From: a virus
Lineage: Duplodnaviria > Heunggongvirae > Uroviricota > Caudoviricetes
DNA: 6,858 nucleotides
IMG/VR virus record: IMGVR_UViG_2660238190_000001
Direction: 5' to 3' (one strand)
Part shown: piece by piece, positions 1 to 6,858 of the stretch
Layout: the number at the start of each line of letters is the position of its first letter
Position numbering within the stretch: the stretch's first letter is position 1
Translations under genes and position numbers: made by a program
The notes under the pieces: model-generated
The model's input: only the letters and a program-made list of their open reading frames with translations
What the model was told of the DNA's origin: nothing
The model's database searches: none

Positions 1-451
1 ATTTCTCAGCCTGGGTCATTGAAGCCTGCCGTCGGAGACTAACGTCAGAAAAGAGAGCATATACATCAATCCAAAGTGATGATGGATGAACATCCCGGTT
101 TCTTCCACCATCGCACCGGAAAAGCGACTATGAGGGTAACCCTGCGTCTGTCAGCACAGTAAAACCCGGTGTGCATCGTTTTTGATTATTCCCGCACACT
201 CACGCAGAAGGAATTCCCCGTCGGGCTACGGTCATGGTTAATGCGGGAATACGGCGACGATACAGCGCAGCTAAAAGGGTAATAGACGGATAGACCGGTT
301 TATTTCATTCCACAGGATTCTGAGTGTCCCCAACTTCCTCCAATAGTCTGAGCGTACACCTATATAGTTTTAATTTTCATCAATCCATTTAACTATCGTT
401 TAATTGTTGTCACATAGGATTCTGCCGTTTTTAACAATGCAGGATAATAAG

Positions 452-745
452 ATGAAAAAAATGTTGTTTTCTGCCGCTCTGGCAATGCTTATTACAGGAT
501 GTGCTCAACAGACGTTTACTGTTGGAAACAAACCTACAGCAGTAACACCAAAGGAAACCATCACCCATCATTTCTTCGTTTCGGGAATTGGACAGGAGAA
601 AACTGTTGATGCAGCCAAAATTTGTGGCGGCGCAGAAAATGTTGTTAAAACAGAAACCCAGCAAACATTCGTAAATGGATTGCTCGGTTTTATTACTTTA
701 GGCATTTATACTCCGCTGGAAGCGCGTGTGTATTGCTCACAATAA
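452..745 (+). CDS. bor: Bor outer-membrane lipoprotein (lambda Bor / Iss family, serum-resistance moron), 97 aa
   Basis: Translation from ATG 452 (MKKMLFSAALAMLITGCAQQTF...RVYCSQ) matches lambda Bor over its full length as I remember it; signal peptide with lipobox LITGC; AGGA 7 nt upstream of ATG 452. The track ORF starting at 404 has a 16-aa extension without RBS support. Convergent with Rz, as in lambda. Confidence 0.9.
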   Translation: MKKMLFSAALAMLITGCAQQTFTVGNKPTAVTPKETITHHFFVSGIGQEKTVDAAKICGGAENVVKTETQQTFVNGLLGFITLGIYTPLEARVYCSQ

Positions 746-776
746 TTGCATGAGTTGCCCATCGATATGGGCAGCT

Positions 777-1238
777 CTATCTGCACTGCTCATTAATATA
801 CTTCTGGGTTCCTTCCAGTTGTTTTTGCATAGTGATCAGCCTCTCTCTGAGGGTGAAATAATCCCGTTCAGCGGTGTCTGCCAGTCGGGGGGAGGCTGCA
901 TTATCCACGCCGGAGGCGGTGGTGGCTTCACGCACTGACTGACAGACTGCTTTGATGTGCAACCGACGACGACCAGCGGCAACATCATCACGCAGAGCAT
1001 CATTTTCAGCTTTCGCATTAGCTAACTCCTTCGTGTATTTTTCATCCAGTGCAGCAACATCACGCTGGCGCATCTGCATGTCAGTAATTGCCGCGTTCGC
1101 CAGCTTCAGTTCTCTGGCATTTTTGTCGCGCTGGGCTTTGTAGGTAATGGCGTTATCACGGTAATGATTAACAGCCCATGACAGGCAGACGATGATGCAG
1201 ATAACCAGAGCGGAGATAATCGCGGTTACTCTGTTCAT
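777..1238 (-). CDS. rzpD: Rz inner-membrane spanin (i-spanin), 153 aa
   Basis: Near-identical by recollection to lambda Rz ([29 protein letters not shown]...KYINEQCR); N-terminal TM segment then coiled-coil-like periplasmic part; ATG overlaps the stop of the upstream endolysin (ATGA). Confidence 0.92.
836..1018 (-). CDS. rzoD: Rz1 outer-membrane lipoprotein spanin (o-spanin), 60 aa, embedded in the +1 frame of Rz
   Basis: [24 protein letters not shown]...[16 protein letters not shown]: lipobox VVGC and proline-rich mature part, matching lambda Rz1 by recollection; lies entirely within Rz in a different frame. Confidence 0.85.
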
Positions 1239-1732
1239 TGCTTACCCCACAAACAGATTTCACGCTCAATCTCACGACGAGTCATGAGACCTTTCCATTG
1301 CTTACCGCCAGCATATGTCCAGCGACGTAGCTGATCACATGCGCCTTTGATATCACCCTGGTTTATTTTGCGAAGAAGCGTCGATATTCTGAAATTGCCA
1401 GCACCCACGTTGTAGACGAACGAGTAAAGAGCGCCGCGCGTTGTTTCCGGTATATCGACTTTGATGTACGGGTTAATTTGTCTGGCGACAGTGGCAAGGT
1501 CTTTATTCAGGAGGGCTTTGCATTCTGCTTCGGTATACGTTTTACCGGGAATGATGTCTTTTCCTGTATGCCCGTGACATACAGTCCATACGCCAACGAT
1601 ATCTTTATATGGTATGTAGCTGACACCTTCCAGACCATCGTCACCACTCGGACCAGTGATGAGCACAGACGCTATGGCAACAGCCCCACCACCAATAGCA
1701 GCTGCTACAGCCTTGCGTAATGATGGCGACAT
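1235..1732 (-). CDS. rrrD: SAR endolysin, phage 21 R21-type true lysozyme (T4 E-like, GH24), 165 aa
   Basis: N-terminal Gly/Ala-rich weakly hydrophobic signal-anchor-release segment ([20 protein letters not shown]), then E-x8-D-x5-T catalytic spacing ([17 protein letters not shown]) as in T4 lysozyme; strong recalled similarity to phage 21 R and K-12 RrrD. Start ATG overlaps the holin stop (TAATG). Confidence 0.92.
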
Positions 1733-1947
1733 TATTCACCTCTCGCAGCCTTACGCTTATCTTCTTTAATCTTGAAATAAAGGTTTGTCAGGTACGTCAG
1801 CAGGCCAAATACCAGGCTACCCAGCACTCCAATTGCCGCCCACTGTGAGGGCGTGACTTTATCTAGCAGCTGTAAAAACCAGTACCCGGCACTACCTGCT
1901 GAGGTGCCATAGGCGACACCCGTTGTTAACTTATCCATGGATTTCAT
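1732..1947 (-). CDS. essD: Pinholin, phage 21 S21-type class II holin with dual-start motif (M1/M4), 71 aa
   Basis: [26 protein letters not shown]...[17 protein letters not shown]: two TM segments, Met1-Lys-Ser-Met4 dual start (antiholin/holin), charged C-terminus; matches S21/EssD by recollection. GAGGT-type SD upstream. Confidence 0.92.
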
Positions 1948-2057
1948 AACCCCACCTCGCAGACAAAGCGGGTGTAAATTGAGGGAATACTACGAAACGT
2001 AACAGACTCGGAGTCAGTGAATAACTCAGGTATTGGGTTATCAGCTAATATCGAGAC

Positions 2058-2092
2058 TCAAAAAATGGAAAAACCCGCTCGACGGCGGGTTT
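2058..2092 (-). terminator. Rho-independent terminator on the minus strand upstream of the holin (tR'-like late terminator)
   Basis: Minus strand reads AAACCCGC-CGTCGA-GCGGGTTT followed by TTCCATTTTTTGA (8-bp GC-rich stem, 6-nt loop, T-rich tail); about 110 bp upstream of the S start. Confidence 0.6.
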
Positions 2093-2244
2093 AAGCTGTG
2101 TGACGAAGTAACCACTCTTAACAGCATAACCAATTTTTTACGTACGTAAACCACTAAATGATATTTGCGAGAATGCTACCGAGTATTGAAAACACCACTA
2201 CAAATACATAAGCAAATCTCAACAAATAACCAACAAATAATTTC

Positions 2245-2280
2245 CAGTGTTATTTTAGCTGATTTAAATTGAACCTTCAA
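2245..2280 (-). promoter_or_regulatory. Candidate sigma70 late promoter (pR'-like): -35 TTGAAG, 17-bp spacer, -10 TAAAAT on the minus strand
   Basis: Minus-strand hexamers at 2280-2275 (TTGAAG) and 2257-2252 (TAAAAT) with a 17-nt spacer; predicted start near 2245 would give a transcript of about 185 nt ending at the 2058-2092 terminator, similar to the lambda pR'-6S-tR' layout. Motif-only call. Confidence 0.3.
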
Positions 2281-2436
2281 ATTATAGAGCGCTTATAAAT
2301 AACAGCCGTTAATATAAATTGGCTAATAGATTTATTTTTATTCAGCCAAGAGCTATGAATAGGATTCGATAGAAAAAAGTTCAGATAAAAATAGAGATCT
2401 ACTTCACAAATCAAACGAGAAACCAAAACTTACATC

Positions 2437-2466
2437 TTGAAATAATCACATTGATTAGATGAATAT
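2437..2466 (+). promoter_or_regulatory. Candidate nmpC promoter region (weak -35/-10 matches) in the AT-rich 5' region
   Basis: TTGAAA at 2437-2442 followed 17-18 nt later by TGAATA/GAATAT; AAAGGG SD-like element 6 nt upstream of ATG 2520. Hexamer matches are weak and alternatives exist. Confidence 0.2.
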
Positions 2467-2519
2467 TTATCGCGCAGTGACATCATTTTTTAATAATAGT
2501 TCAAAAAAAAGGGCTCACG

Positions 2520-3617
2520 ATGAAAAAATTAACAGTGGCAATTTCTGCTGTAGCTGCATCAGTACTGATGGCGATGTCTGCTCAGGCAGCTGAAATTTAT
2601 AATAAAGACAGTAACAAGCTGGATCTGTACGGGAAAGTTAATGCTAAGCACTACTTCTCCTCTAATGATGCAGATGATGGTGATACTACTTATGCCCGTC
2701 TTGGCTTCAAAGGTGAAACCCAAATCAACGATCAACTGACTGGTTTCGGTCAGTGGGAATATGAATTCAAAGGCAACCGCGCTGAATCTCAAGGTTCCTC
2801 CAAAGATAAAACCCGTCTTGCCTTCGCTGGCCTGAAATTCGGTGACTACGGCTCCATCGATTACGGCCGTAACTACGGTGTAGCATACGACATCGGTGCG
2901 TGGACTGACGTTCTGCCAGAATTCGGTGGCGATACCTGGACCCAAACAGATGTGTTCATGACTGGTCGCACCACTGGTGTTGCAACCTATCGTAACAACG
3001 ACTTCTTTGGTCTGGTTGATGGTCTGAACTTTGCTGCTCAGTACCAAGGCAAAAACGATCGTAGCGATTTCGATAACTACACTGAAGGTAACGGTGATGG
3101 CTTCGGTTTCTCTGCTACCTATGAATACGAAGGATTCGGTATCGGTGCAACTTATGCGAAATCTGATCGTACCGACACTCAAGTTAATGCAGGGAAAGTT
3201 CTTCCTGAAGTATTTGCTTCCGGTAAAAATGCAGAAGTTTGGGCCGCAGGTCTGAAATATGACGCTAACAACATTTACCTGGCCACTACCTATTCTGAAA
3301 CCCAGAATATGACTGTATTTGCTGATCACTTCGTTGCTAATAAAGCTCAAAACTTCGAAGCTGTTGCACAATATCAGTTCGATTTCGGTCTGCGTCCGTC
3401 CGTTGCTTACCTGCAATCTAAAGGTAAGGATCTTGGAGTATGGGGCGATCAGGACTTAGTCAAATATGTTGATGTAGGTGCAACCTATTACTTCAACAAA
3501 AATATGTCTACTTTCGTTGATTACAAAATCAACCTGCTTGACAAAAATGACTTCACTAAAGCACTCGGTGTAAGCACTGATGACATCGTTGCTGTAGGTC
3601 TGGTTTACCAGTTCTAA
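2520..3617 (+). CDS. nmpC: Outer-membrane general porin NmpC / Lc (OmpC/OmpF/PhoE family), intact, 365 aa
   Basis: Signal peptide [23 protein letters not shown]|AEIYNK, C-terminal beta-barrel signature ...GLVYQF, porin-typical Gly/Tyr/Asp-rich strands; matches the prophage-encoded NmpC/Lc porin by recollection. No IS interruption in this window. Confidence 0.93.
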
Positions 3618-3625
3618 TCTGATTA

Positions 3626-3667
3626 CGAAAAAGATATGTTGCGGGAGGCGTTGCCTCCCCAACATAT
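3626..3667 (-). terminator. Long hairpin with minus-strand T-tract (terminator for leftward transcripts from the Q operon)
   Basis: Inverted repeat ATATGTTG(C)GGGAGGC-GTT-GCCTCCC-CAACATAT at 3634-3667 (about 15 bp stem with one bulge); on the minus strand the hairpin is followed by CTTTTTC (plus 3627-3633). No U-tract on the plus side. Confidence 0.55.
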
Positions 3668-3755
3668 AAGTGGCTCCCTCAAGCCACTTCCTTTAGAAGC
3701 ACAACCTTGCTTCTAACTATATAAACCTTCTGTTATATATTACCCTTTATTTTTG

Positions 3756-3779
3756 GGGGCGTCTCAACGCCCCATTTTT
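3756..3779 (+). terminator. Rho-independent terminator on the plus strand (nmpC terminator, before Q antisense)
   Basis: GGGGCGT-CTCA-ACGCCCC followed by ATTTTTAA on the plus strand; located between the nmpC stop (3617) and the Q stop (3807). Confidence 0.55.
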
Positions 3780-3806
3780 AATAACTTTTAGTAAACAACT
3801 GGCATA

Positions 3807-4190
3807 TTAATTAGAGTTATTAACAACGATATCCATCTCTAACCGGATATCTAATGCCATTAACATCCCTTCAATTATACCCTCAGCCTTCTGTAACCTT
3901 TTCCCGATATAACCATCAGAGCAGCAATGCTTACCTGCCAGTGACATGAATGTCATACCGACTACATAATAATCTACTAATAAATCGTGCAAATCGCTGT
4001 TGTTCTTTTTCAGACGGGCCATGCACCCGCAAATGATCATCGCGTCATCGTCACAACATTGCGGGCGAGATTTTACTTTTGAAGTAATTAATCCCTTAAA
4101 ACCGGCGGCAATGGACGACCAGGTCACATCTTCATGATTATTAGCCGCCCACGATCCCCAACGCTCAAGAACCATCTGAATATCACGCAT
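3807..4190 (-). CDS. quuD: Q-like late-gene antiterminator (DLP12 QuuD-like), 127 aa from ATG 4190
   Basis: [12 protein letters not shown]...[16 protein letters not shown]...KHCCSDGY: Cys-rich, recalled similarity to K-12 QuuD. The track ORF starts at a TTG (4205); ATG at 4190 has GGAG 7 nt upstream and gives the 127-aa form. Confidence 0.82.
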
Positions 4191-4275
4191 CAACTTACTC
4201 CACAAAAATCAGACCAGAACGCCAATTACAAGCAAAAATCAACAAAACAGTATTAGTTGATTGTTATCTCTGACT

Positions 4276-4416
4276 TCATACTCCTGCTCCTGTCAGGGTT
4301 TTGGCGTAATTCTTCAGTATTCGGTAATCGGTCAAAACAGAACCGGGGAAACGATATAAGCGCAGACGCCCCCAGCGGTGGCGAAGAAGTTCTGCCATAT
4401 TAAACTCAAACATCAT
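4276..4416 (-). CDS. ylcG: Small nin-region protein YlcG-like, 46 aa (below ORF-track cut-off; found by hand translation)
   Basis: Minus-strand ATG at 4416 gives [46 protein letters not shown], stop at 4278-4276; start overlaps the rusA stop (ATGA). Position between rusA and Q matches DLP12 ylcG as I recall. Confidence 0.6.
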
Positions 4417-4775
4417 TCATTCCCCATTTCGGTGATGGTCAGTTCCAGCCTCCCACCTTTGGTAACAGGCATCTTCACAACGCGGTAATCAACGACCTGA
4501 GCATCATCCAGCCAGAAACCTGCTTTAGTGAGTGCGTCAAAAGCGGCTTTTTGCAGATTATCCAGGTCACGGCGACGGCGATCCGGCATGTGGCACTCAA
4601 TGCGGATTTTCACAGGCATAGCCAGGCCGATATCCAGCATTGCGTTTTTAATGATTCGGGCGACGTTATCGCGGTATGCCTGCCCCTCTGCGCTGATGTG
4701 CGTGCGCCCGCGATTATGGCGGTAATAGCGATTATTGCTCGGAGGCCAGGGTAGTGTGATGTGGTAAGTATTCAC
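4413..4775 (-). CDS. rusA: RusA Holliday-junction resolvase (RusA endonuclease family), about 120 aa from GTG 4775
   Basis: [26 protein letters not shown]...[18 protein letters not shown]...[11 protein letters not shown] matches K-12 RusA by recollection including the acidic residues. GTG at 4775 overlaps the ybcO stop (GTGA); the longer track ORF from ATG 4838 overlaps the ybcO C-terminus by about 22 codons and is less likely. Confidence 0.85.
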
Positions 4776-5062
4776 GCCTTGATTACCCCCTCTTTCAGCC
4801 AGATAACCTGCGTTCTCGCCATACCTTCCAGCGCGCATTCTTTTGCGTGCTCAGCATCGACAAAATGCGTGCGGCGGTCGATTTCGGCGTGACAGGCAGA
4901 ACAGGCAATGGTGGCAATAAGGTCTGGCGGTTTAATACCGGTGCCGCACAATCCAGCCAGCCGGATATGTGCCAGTACAGACGTTTCAGGGTTGCCATTA
5001 CATACGCCAGGGATTCTTACCTGGCATTCCCGACCACGCGCTGCTTTTCTCAAATCAGCCAT
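4772..5062 (-). CDS. ybcO: YbcO-like nin-region protein (Cys-rich, putative zinc-binding nuclease, DUF1364-type), 96 aa from ATG 5062
   Basis: [32 protein letters not shown]...CSACHAEID...: Cys cluster; AAGGAGG 4 nt upstream of ATG 5062; recalled similarity to K-12 YbcO. The track ORF (from 5101) includes 13 extra N-terminal codons. Confidence 0.8.
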
Positions 5063-5225
5063 GATTCCTCCTTGCTGCCAGTCGCAACCATTTTTTATCA
5101 ACCAGGCTGGCGGTATATCCGAGCAGTGTTGGTATTTCGGAAGGCTTCAGCTCAGGTTTACGCTTACGACGATTTGGTACTCTGTAAATGTGCCCGTTCA
5201 TGACACGAATAAGCGGTGTAGCCAT
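5055..5225 (-). CDS. ninE: NinE-like small protein, 56 aa (below ORF-track cut-off; found by hand translation)
   Basis: Minus-strand ATG at 5225 gives [56 protein letters not shown], stop TGA at 5057-5055; start overlaps the ybcN stop (TAATG) and the 3' end overlaps the ybcO start by 8 nt. Confidence 0.75.
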   Translation of the reverse strand: MATPLIRVMNGHIYRVPNRRKRKPELKPSEIPTLLGYTASLVDKKWLRLAARRNHG

Positions 5226-5680
5226 TACGCCTCCTGCTTATCGCGCAGCAGCTGGAACTCGCAGCTCGGCGGAATAGTCAGGTGGCAGCCAATATTCATC
5301 GCCCAGGCTTCAACATTACACAGGAAGACATACATCTCTCCGGTATCAAGATCGGAGGTATGGCGTAACGACTGGATAGTGGTGATATCACCGGTTACGA
5401 CATCAACCAGGTCTTTGGTTTCATAACCGAGATATGTGTGTTTGAGAGCATCTTTTACCCAAGCTGGAGTGGCGAACGTTTTACCCCTGCTGATGAGGTA
5501 TTCACTGATTTCGCTGTACCACATGTGGCTGAGTGCATTCTGGGAAAGACTGCGTCTCTCGCGCCACGGTTTAAGCACCATGCGAAAGCATTTTCCGTCC
5601 TCCAGATAAGGCTGGATCTGCTGGCCGATAGCGGTGAAGTTGCCGCGATGTAATTTGATGCCGTCTTGTGGGAGGTTCAC
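5225..5680 (-). CDS. ybcN: YbcN-like nin-region protein (DLP12 YbcN; reported DNA base-flipping protein), 151 aa, GTG start
   Basis: Track [18 protein letters not shown]...LLRDKQEA; start codon at 5680 is GTG with GGAGGT 5 nt upstream; identity from recalled similarity to K-12 YbcN and from synteny with ninE-ybcO-rusA. Confidence 0.78.
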
Positions 5681-5778
5681 GCTTCACCTCCGCAGAGGTC
5701 AAACTCAGGATACAAAAAATCGCAGGTGCATTTCTGCATCTGTGAAGGGAGAAGAGAGTTTGGATTGTATGTGCGCAT
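5677..5778 (-). CDS. ylcH: Small ORF, 33 aa, YlcH-like (below ORF-track cut-off; found by hand translation)
   Basis: Minus-strand ATG at 5778 gives [33 protein letters not shown], stop TGA at 5679-5677 overlapping the ybcN GTG start (GTGA). Length and position match K-12 ylcH as I recall; no independent coding evidence. Confidence 0.45.
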
Positions 5779-5870
5779 AAACGTCCCCGTTTAGCGCAGA
5801 AGTCACCGGAGTTGTTCAAGCTCCGATGACTTTATTATTACGAATTGATTTTACAAAATCAAAAGGTATG

Positions 5871-6323
5871 TTAGTGACGCGGGTCTGTTATTATGCGAGA
5901 AGGGTTTCCGTATAAAACAAGGACCTTACTTCCTTGAGTAAATAACGGATCTTTGCCTTGAACAATGGTCATTAAATTCCCATTCTCAGTTTCGACAACA
6001 TATTCCATGCCTGTTTGTTTTGTTGCTGAAGATTCGATTGCTGCCCCGGCAATACCACCAATGACTGCACCACCAACGGCACCAACGATATTAGAACGAA
6101 CTCCCCCACCAAGCGCAGAACCAGCGGTTGCCCCCACGGCAGCCCCAGCAGTCCCGCCTAACGCGGAAGTCCCACTGATATCAACCCCCCTGGCACTAAT
6201 AACTGTACCAGCGATAGTTCGATTAACCATGCCCACAGAGCCAACAGAATAACTATTTGGCGATATATTTTGTGCGCATCCAACCAACACTAAGAGTGGA
6301 GCAATTACGAATAATCGCTTCAT
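5871..6323 (-). CDS. SlyB/Pcp-like outer-membrane lipoprotein with glycine-zipper region, 150 aa
   Basis: Signal peptide with lipobox LVGC (MKRLFVIAPLLVLVGCAQN), central Gly/Ala zipper (GGTAGAAVGATAGSALGGGVRSNIVGAVGGAVIGGIAGAA), C-terminal segment GMEYVVETENGNLMTIVQGK...SKVLVL resembling the SlyB C-terminus (GVELEIRKDDGNTIMVVQKQ...QRVVL) as I recall it. ATG overlaps the stop of the upstream ORF (ATGA). Confidence 0.75.
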   Translation of the reverse strand: MKRLFVIAPLLVLVGCAQNISPNSYSVGSVGMVNRTIAGTVISARGVDISGTSALGGTAGAAVGATAGSALGGGVRSNIVGAVGGAVIGGIAGAAIESSATKQTGMEYVVETENGNLMTIVQGKDPLFTQGSKVLVLYGNPSRIITDPRH

Positions 6324-6664
6324 TTAGCTACCCTAACAGGAAACATTGGACGAGAAAGATCAACACTTTCTAATGCTTGCAAGAACTGCGTTATGTTGTT
6401 TTGCACCGCGCGATTAACAGATTCGCGTGCTCGAACAATACCGTAGAATGCGTAACTGGCTGGAACAGTACCGGTAGACTCAATATCCTGCGTATATATA
6501 ATATCACCATTCGCACGGTTGATTATTTCATACCTTGCAATTGCTTTAGTTGTCATTGAAACACCAAAAGCAGGAACGTCAAGAGCCAACACTTTAACAT
6601 TTAAGCTAACCGTATTTGGTGAACTATCACGAAAAATAGTCATTCGGTCGAGTGCTTCCTGCAA
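6320..6664 (-). CDS. Unknown protein, either intact (about 107 aa from ATG 6643) or a 5'-truncated remnant of a longer gene interrupted by IS1
   Basis: Track ORF begins at a TTG (6664) only 17 bp from the IS1 end; the first ATG is at 6643 with AGGAAG 11 nt upstream. The frame stays open upstream through the IS1 boundary to a stop at 6772-6770 with no start codon in between. No signal peptide or recognisable family in what remains; translationally coupled to the downstream lipoprotein. Confidence 0.5.
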   Translation of the reverse strand: MQEALDRMTIFRDSSPNTVSLNVKVLALDVPAFGVSMTTKAIARYEIINRANGDIIYTQDIESTGTVPASYAFYGIVRARESVNRAVQNNITQFLQALESVDLSRPMFPVRVAK

Positions 6665-6681
6665 AGATTCACGCCAAATTG

Positions 6682-6858
6682 GGTGGTGCTGCCAACTTAC
6701 TGATTTAGTGTATGATGGTGTTTTTGAGGTGCTCCAGTGGCTTCTGTTTCTATCAGCTGTCCCTCCTGTTCAGCTACTGACGGGGTGGTGCGTAACGGCA
6801 AAAGCACTGCCGGACATCAGCGCTATCTCTGCTCTCACTGCCGTAAAACATGGCAACT
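6682..6858 (+). mobile_element. IS1 insertion sequence, left end (IRL plus start of insA); continues beyond the window
   Basis: GGTGGTGCTGCCAACTTACTGATTTAGTGTATGATGGTGTTTTTGAGGTGCTCCAGTGGCTTCTGTTTCTATCAGCTGTCCCTCC... matches the canonical IS1 left end almost base for base as I remember it (IRL GGTGATGCTGCCAACTTACTGAT with one mismatch). Confidence 0.9.
6737..6858 (+). CDS. insA: IS1 InsA (transposition repressor / N-terminal part of InsAB' transposase), partial, 3' end outside the window
   Basis: GTG start at 6737 gives [39 protein letters not shown]..., the zinc-finger N-terminus of IS1 InsA. Confidence 0.88.

Follow-up and report, generated by a model that had tools for sequence, protein, structure and literature searches.

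IS1 insertion into a prophage lipoprotein gene upstream of a SlyB-like gene

We analyzed a stretch of 6,858 nucleotides (the window; IMG/VR record IMGVR_UViG_2660238190_000001). At its right end, an IS1 element interrupts a prophage gene that encodes a 186-residue lipoprotein. A complete 768-bp IS1 transposed into this gene, just after the codon for Trp69, and duplicated 8 (or 9) bp. The gene was thereby split into a 3' piece (codons 67-186), which is in the window, and a 5' piece (the promoter-like site, the ribosome binding site, and codons 1-69), which would lie beyond IS1 and would read into it as a 95-codon fusion ORF. The lipoprotein product would be knocked out. We are highly confident in the explanation as a whole, namely that an IS1 insertion split the lipoprotein gene and that the downstream gene was most likely silenced or reduced by polarity. 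This is an already known kind of event, a textbook insertional knock-out by IS1, and not a new feature.

Results and Discussion

An IS1 element at the right end of the window

The left end of IS1 occupies 6682-6858 on the plus strand, and the element runs off the edge of the window. Its left inverted repeat (IRL) is at 6682-6704 and reads GGTGGTGCTGCCAACTTACTGAT. One base of the repeat is a variant: it has GGTGGTG instead of GGTGATG, which we take to be the usual form. IS1 copies from E. coli match the window from 6682 onward (9,419 records, at 95-99% identity or better). The sequence and these matches agree with the initial annotation, which had the inverted repeat beginning at 6682. The insA gene begins with a GTG at 6737 (plus strand), and the zinc ribbon of InsA is encoded at 6737-6856 (PF03811, E = 2.6e-22). 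A promoter scan also found a promoter-like site at 6689-6716 (CTGCCA-16-TATGAT), which points into IS1.

The window includes just 177 bases of IS1, and the far junction is outside of it. As a proxy for the far junction, we used a 37,424-bp contig from E. coli (JBAGQM010000028.1, from assembly GCA_052184385.1; we call it L006). This contig was among the ten loci returned by an exact look-up of a 107-residue product that can be called from the interrupted gene (see below). L006 is 100% identical to positions 32-6858 of the window, including the junction and the 177 bases of IS1; the window reaches 31 bases past the end of L006, so it is from a different assembly.

L006 contains the whole IS1, at 9195-9962 (768 bp). 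Its termini (IRL GGTGGTGCTGCCAACTTACTGAT and IRR GGTAATGACTCCAACTTATTGAT) match each other at 17 of 23 positions. In other words, the element has the length of an IS1 (~768 bp) and imperfect inverted repeats of about 23 bp that resemble GGTGATGCTGCCAACTTACTGAT. The terminal repeats are intact, the insA and insB' frames are open, and the A6C slippery motif TTAAAAAACTC is present. The gene order is that of the IS1 family, in which insA (zinc ribbon and helix-turn-helix) precedes insB' (DDE domain, -1 frame), and the element matches DDE_Tnp_IS1 (PF03400, E = 7.9e-53). The locus table gives a product of 232 amino acids over 698 nucleotides, which implies a frameshift.

The insertion is much like the classical IS1 knock-outs with polarity, such as those in the gal and lac operons. 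The element is the same: 768 bp, with imperfect 23-bp repeats and the insA and insB' frames. As in the gal and lac cases, it interrupts the coding region of the first gene in a small operon, it is accompanied by a short direct duplication of the target, and it would be expected to have a polar effect on the gene downstream. Except for the one variant base in the left repeat, we saw no difference of substance from a classical insertion. (The unambiguous part of the target duplication is 8 bp here, versus the usual 9 bp for IS1.)

The interrupted gene encodes a 186-residue lipoprotein

To identify intact alleles, we compared positions 5681-6682 of the window to 5,426 complete genomes of E. coli, using megablast. 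The whole stretch is carried by 280 of these genomes. We inspected the IS-free alleles from two strains, N137 (L001) and BS74R-D (L002). The IS-free gene is 561 bp (4640-5200 on the minus strand of L001) and encodes a protein of 186 amino acids, whose N-terminus is MKKIILLAMIIGSLTGC / MKKIILLAMIIGSLTGCAS. The product has a typical lipoprotein signal peptide and a lipobox (LTGC), with Cys17 as the lipobox cysteine. The sequence from BS74R-D is 99.98% identical to positions 1681-6682 of the window, and the identity ends exactly at 6682. Across the insertion site, the native DNA reads ...CCAAATTGGAGTTATAGCC..., while the window reads ...CCAAATTGGGTGGTGCTGCC....

Based on the IS-free alleles and an alignment of 38 sequences, the window contains the 3' fragment of this gene, at 6320-6681 on the minus strand. 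The fragment comprises codons 67/68 to 186 and the stop codon. Missing from it are the promoter, the start codon, the signal peptide, the lipobox cysteine (Cys17), and, according to an AlphaFold2 model, the first beta strand. The initial annotation, which was made from the letters of the window, had noticed that the residues just inside the junction look like the interior of a protein, and they are: IWRESLQEALDRMTIF corresponds to positions 68-83 of the 186-residue lipoprotein. It had also proposed aligning an IS-free allele of the locus. With the alleles from N137 and BS74R-D and 38 homologues in hand, the gene in the window is indeed truncated relative to a native product of 186 amino acids.

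Truncation is not the full story, however. The gene is broken, as was suggested, but it is split rather than merely truncated, because codons 1-69 lie beyond IS1 in L006. The flank on the far side of IS1 in L006 contains these codons and a promoter-like site. There, an ORF of 95 codons (8988-9275) is made up of 69 native residues and 26 residues that are encoded by IS1. Judging from the identity of the two sequences, the genome that the window comes from probably has the same arrangement beyond IS1 as L006 does.

The downstream SlyB-like gene is probably silenced or strongly reduced

The gene downstream of the 3' fragment is intact. It encodes 150 amino acids (5871-6323, minus strand), and its ATG overlaps the stop codon of the upstream gene (ATGA, 6320-6323). 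When compared to SlyB (PDB 7ojf) using phmmer, the protein aligns over its full length (residues 2-149, E = 1.3e-14). Like SlyB, it has a lipobox (LVGC), a glycine zipper, and the C-terminal domain, although its matches to PF05433 and PF13488 are below the curated cut-offs. We therefore consider it to be a glycine-zipper lipoprotein of the SlyB/Pcp type. The identical protein is found on at least 1,000 contigs. Chromosomal slyB stands alone. In contrast, the gene for the 150-residue protein is behind the gene for the 186-residue lipoprotein and is a paralogue carried by prophages or by other mobile DNA.

On the gene strand, the promoter scan detected a single promoter-like site, GTGATA-16-TATAAT, at 8931-8958 of L006. 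It precedes the native ATG by about 30 bp and is now on the other side of IS1. Neither IS1 nor the junction has such a site on this strand, and expression of the 3' fragment has probably been lost. If the remnant were translated from Met80, then it would, according to an AlphaFold2 model, be a cytoplasmic fragment with an incomplete fold: strand 40-48 and part of helix 62-80 are missing from it.

Between the promoter and the SlyB-like gene, there would now be about 1.1 kb of untranslated RNA (antisense IS1 and the dead 3' fragment). Because of this long untranslated stretch, the SlyB-like gene is probably silenced or strongly reduced by transcriptional polarity. More broadly, it is reasonable to conclude that the expression of the two-gene module is altered; for the downstream gene, we infer this from the arrangement of the locus.

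Alternatively, just the lipoprotein might be lost, and the SlyB-like gene might still be expressed, either by read-through of IS1 or from a weak hybrid promoter. This strain would then make a SlyB paralogue without its partner. We think that this is unlikely, but it has some arguments in its favor. The SlyB-like gene is intact and has its own weak Shine-Dalgarno sequence (AGGG, ~7 nucleotides upstream), so it could be translated from a read-through transcript. Also, the end of IS1 contains an outward-facing TTGGCA (6695-6690), and IS1 insertions can create functional promoters, as a paper by Prentki et al. 1986 indicates in its title (it is among the references of PMC12095673). On the other hand, the native ATGA overlap suggests translational coupling, which is now lost, and the ~1.1 kb of untranslated RNA favors Rho-dependent polarity. 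The title of another paper in the same reference list (Hubner, Iida & Arber 1987) refers to a terminator within IS1. As for the hybrid promoter, the scan of the gene strand gave no hit in IS1 or at its junction with the gene. The candidate that we considered combines the outward TTGGCA with GTGAAT (6672-6667) across a 17-nucleotide spacer. It matches the consensus at 8 of 12 positions, which is below the threshold of the scan, and its -10 element lacks the key A at position 2. Silencing or strong reduction of the SlyB-like gene by polarity remains our preferred reading.

We also noticed a terminator-like hairpin, TTGGGGTAATGACTCCAA followed by CTTATTGATA, at 9191-9208 of L006 (plus strand). 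It is formed by the duplicated target and the right end of IS1, and it is placed where transcription from the native promoter enters IS1. This hairpin is a consensus-level match only, and shuffled sequences contain an average of 1.9 such sites.

The insertion appears to be simple and recent

One copy of the target duplication is at 6674-6681 of the window (CCAAATTG on the plus strand, which is CAATTTGG on the gene strand). In L006, CAATTTGG directly flanks IS1 on both sides, at 9187-9194 and at 9963-9970. Thus, both copies of a direct duplication of 8-9 bp, as is typical for the IS1 family, are visible in L006, and one of them is in the window. The length of the duplication is ambiguous: it is 8 bp, or 9 bp with the G at 6682 included, as this base is compatible with the terminus of IS1 and with the native target alike. 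The initial annotation proposed that the far end of IS1 be checked for a duplication near GCCAAATTG at 6673-6681. The check in L006 does find a short repeat, but the guessed sequence was one base off.

If IS1 and one 8-bp copy are removed from L006 in silico, the result matches the IS-free allele of BS74R-D exactly over 2,400 bp. Over a longer range (9,002 bp), the excised sequence has one mismatch to BS74R-D. Since a clean excision restores the IS-free allele, this was a simple insertion and not a deletion.

As the window ends within IS1, we considered whether IS1 might have mediated an adjacent deletion or inversion in the window's genome. In that case, the promoter and the 5' part of the gene would have been lost or moved. 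IS1 is known to promote adjacent deletions, and the same prophage lineage already has a deletion that fuses ren to the exo-xis region (described below). Nevertheless, we consider such a rearrangement to be very unlikely. In L006, which matches the window at each of 6,827 bases, the insertion is clean: the target is duplicated, and the 5' part of the gene is in place.

We also searched for the exact junction between IS1 and the gene. It was not found in any of the 5,426 complete genomes of E. coli, nor did it have any matches in a set with one genome per species or in viral contigs. Similarly, in a collection of about 15 billion proteins, the 95-residue fusion product is present on a single contig. 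The absence of the junction from the 5,426 genomes, the single contig with the fusion product, and the near-identical flanks all point to a recent insertion. The IS1 strain and its near-identical IS-free relatives (such as BS74R-D) form a natural pair of mutant and wild type.

At seven draft loci (L003, L004, L005, and L007-L010), we saw other lesions in the gene, about 60-240 bases upstream of the start of the 107-residue call. These include a change of an A7 tract to A6 or A8, a nonsense mutation (CAG to TAG), and the end of an IS3 element at about codon 52. We considered if the gene might be subject to recurrent decay or to phase variation at the A7 tract, but we rejected this idea as a general claim. 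These loci were selected via their broken product. The exact 74-mer with A7 is present in 278 of the 280 complete genomes with the gene, while queries with A6 or A8 had an exact match in none of the 280. The homopolymer variants are therefore rare or else are sequencing errors. The lipoprotein gene is normally intact.

The 107-residue ORF is a fragment of the lipoprotein gene

The initial annotation left it open whether the ATG at 6643 might be the true start of the gene. In the window, the ORF ending at 6320 (minus strand) has a frame that continues through the junction without interruption until a stop codon at 6772-6770, as had been described; it reads ...SWQHHPIWRESLQEALDRMTIF... there. 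Translation of the minus strand from 6775 shows no ATG, GTG, or TTG in the part of this frame that is derived from IS1. The open frame within IS1 is a coincidence and has no coding meaning. The first possible start codons are a TTG at 6664 and the ATG at 6643, and these do lie 17 and 38 bases from the end of IS1, as had been noted.

Neither of these codons is a start codon in the IS-free alleles. The TTG at 6664 encodes Leu73 of the native protein. According to the alignment and the native translation, the ATG (6641-6643, minus strand) encodes the internal residue Met80. To see how well the preceding residues are conserved, we used the alignment of 38 homologues, which come from many genera and include some with identities as low as 58%. 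Conservation is strong across residues 17-69, and the invariant positions include C17, P22, F25, P28, G31, K36, A39, T45, V46, G56, W69, and M80. Because the internal Met80 is invariant and the residues before it are conserved, the ATG at 6643 is ruled out as the start codon.

The alternative that a 107-residue protein genuinely begins at this ATG, so that its coding sequence is intact, IS1 sits in its promoter, and regulation alone is altered, has an AGGAAG 11 nucleotides upstream and gene calls on 175 contigs to recommend it, but it is almost certainly wrong: at every such locus that we inspected, either the allele is broken (by IS1, IS3, a frameshift, or a nonsense mutation) or the contig ends inside the gene; the IS-free alleles encode 186 amino acids with a lipoprotein signal peptide, instead of beginning at the equivalent of Met80; conservation in the 38 homologues extends across residues 17-79; and the predicted fold would be incomplete without strand 40-48 and helix 62-80. 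An exact look-up of products did not find a version of the ORF that begins at the TTG (114 amino acids) on record. The 107-residue ORF should be annotated as a pseudogene fragment and not as a gene.

A widespread lipoprotein family with misleading names

A protein search found at least 512 homologues of the 186-residue lipoprotein, and most of them have about 186 amino acids. Among the 120 homologues that were listed, all have at least 184 amino acids except for two fragments (of 160 and 162 amino acids), and most have about 185-190. Neither the protein nor its 38 aligned homologues matched any family in Pfam or NCBIfam. The protein does belong to a cluster of phage proteins whose function is unknown (PHROG 12521). 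A sequence search against solved structures gave nothing useful for this family.

The AlphaFold2 model of the 186-residue protein has a two-layer alpha/beta fold, which matches those of outer-membrane lipoproteins. The strongest resemblance is to XCC0632 (DUF330; score of 13.0), followed by PelC (10.6), LptE (9.8), CsgG (9.4), and PqiC (9.3). Although the folds are alike, the sequence identity to LptE, PelC, PqiC (DUF330, XCC0632), and CsgG is just 8-15%, and there is no detectable relationship at the sequence level. Based on the model, the likeness to LptE, PelC, and PqiC would be one of fold only, rather than membership in these families.

In the databases, the protein is named either "UDP-N-acetylglucosamine acyltransferase" or "YajG family lipoprotein." We do not believe either name. 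YajG is, like the 186-residue protein, a lipoprotein of ~190 amino acids. However, neither the protein nor any of the 38 homologues matches the model for YajG's family (PF03923, Lipoprotein_16), while YajG from E. coli K-12 itself matches with E = 3.4e-52. A comparison of profiles with hhalign aligned only residues 2-54 to the first 51 columns, with a probability of 76%. The other name would make the protein a relative of LpxA. We found no match to any hexapeptide or acyltransferase model in Pfam or NCBIfam; the predicted structure is alpha/beta, not a left-handed beta-helix; and the protein has a lipoprotein signal peptide, while LpxA is a cytoplasmic enzyme. In other words, this is a widespread family that lacks a Pfam model and is mislabelled in the databases.

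The two lipoprotein genes form a conserved and mobile operon

We surveyed 65 loci that contain a member of the 186-residue family, with one genome per species (L019-L083). These loci are from Gammaproteobacteria, Betaproteobacteria, Alphaproteobacteria, and Chthoniobacteraceae. In 60 of the 65 loci, a SlyB-like gene is directly downstream on the same strand. (Within the extracted loci, the gene from the 186-residue family is at about 3001-3560 and its SlyB-like partner is at about 3560-4020.) In prophages and in Escherichia phage PhiR30_1, the pair is found between ren and ninB/ybcN. It is also found outside of prophages, in Klebsiella and in Bordetella. The pair might be a lambdoid moron (a cargo gene between ren and ninB that has its own promoter and is dispensable for phage growth): the position and a promoter-like site about 30 bp upstream were both seen, as was the occurrence outside of prophages.

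The pair is a conserved, mobile operon of two lipoproteins, and it appears to be undescribed: literature searches for YajG, and for SlyB together with prophage, found nothing about this gene pair. As genes of the 186-residue family nearly always have a SlyB paralogue behind them, the survey points to an unstudied module of two outer-membrane lipoproteins. It is possible, and we suggest this only tentatively, that the pair is a deeply conserved outer-membrane system, carried as cargo by lambdoid phages and found on chromosomes from Enterobacteriaceae to Alphaproteobacteria and Chthoniobacteraceae. In this system, the SlyB-like protein would be a dedicated paralogue that always works with the 186-residue protein (as its client, cap, or assembly factor), whose fold resembles LptE, PelC, and PqiC, and the pair would have a role in protecting the envelope or in phage exclusion. 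If so, the IS1 strain is a natural knock-out of the system that can be compared to its IS-free sister strains.

Phage PhiR30_1 (PV340558.1; L084) has an intact module at 11151-12160, and its upstream protein is 100% identical. PhiR30_1 is a complete lambdoid phage of 47 kb whose host is E. coli C, so the module is carried by a complete, deposited phage genome and not by remnants alone.

One of the surveyed loci is from a record whose title refers to an actinomycete (L041; JBJNRH010000001.1, "Nocardiopsis yanglingensis strain A18"), yet it contains this pair of outer-membrane lipoproteins. The spacing of the pair matches that of the loci from Stenotrophomonas maltophilia, and its identity is close to theirs, which suggests that the assembly is contaminated or mislabelled.

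The prophage around the insertion

The window covers the late and nin regions of a lambdoid prophage, with nearly all of the genes on the minus strand. These include Rz (777-1238), lysozyme (1235-1732), holin (1732-1947), antiterminator Q (3807-4205), rusA, ybcO, ninE, and ybcN/NinB (5225-5680), all on the minus strand. The two overlapping genes, for the lipoprotein fragment and for the SlyB-like protein, are upstream of ybcN on the same strand. The bor gene (404-745) is on the plus strand.

A porin gene of the OmpC/NmpC type (365 amino acids; 2520-3617, plus strand) is between Q and the holin, in the opposite orientation from the late genes of the phage. With it, the prophage has a second piece of cargo for the outer membrane. 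Its counterpart in PhiR30_1 is annotated as OmpD.

Between the SlyB-like gene and ybcN, RefSeq has a hypothetical ORF of 33 amino acids (5677-5778, minus strand). Inside this ORF there is a terminator-like hairpin, TGCAGAAATGCACCTGCG followed by a run of T, at 5738-5721 (minus strand). This hairpin could terminate transcription of the two-gene cargo, or it could be a tR2-like site.

The window's lineage has a remnant prophage. A truncated ren is joined directly to the exo-xis region (DUF1317 and DUF1382), at 5685-6058 of the locus from BS74R-D and at 8130-8990 of L006, and the region with P, O, cII, cro, and cI is missing. The element adjoins ybhC (pectinesterase), the lambda attachment site.

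Finally, the left end of the window (1-110) lies inside a gene of the DUF3950 family, which is present in multiple copies across prophages. With this repeat at the left end and IS1 at the right end, the window looks like a contig from short reads that is bounded by repeats.
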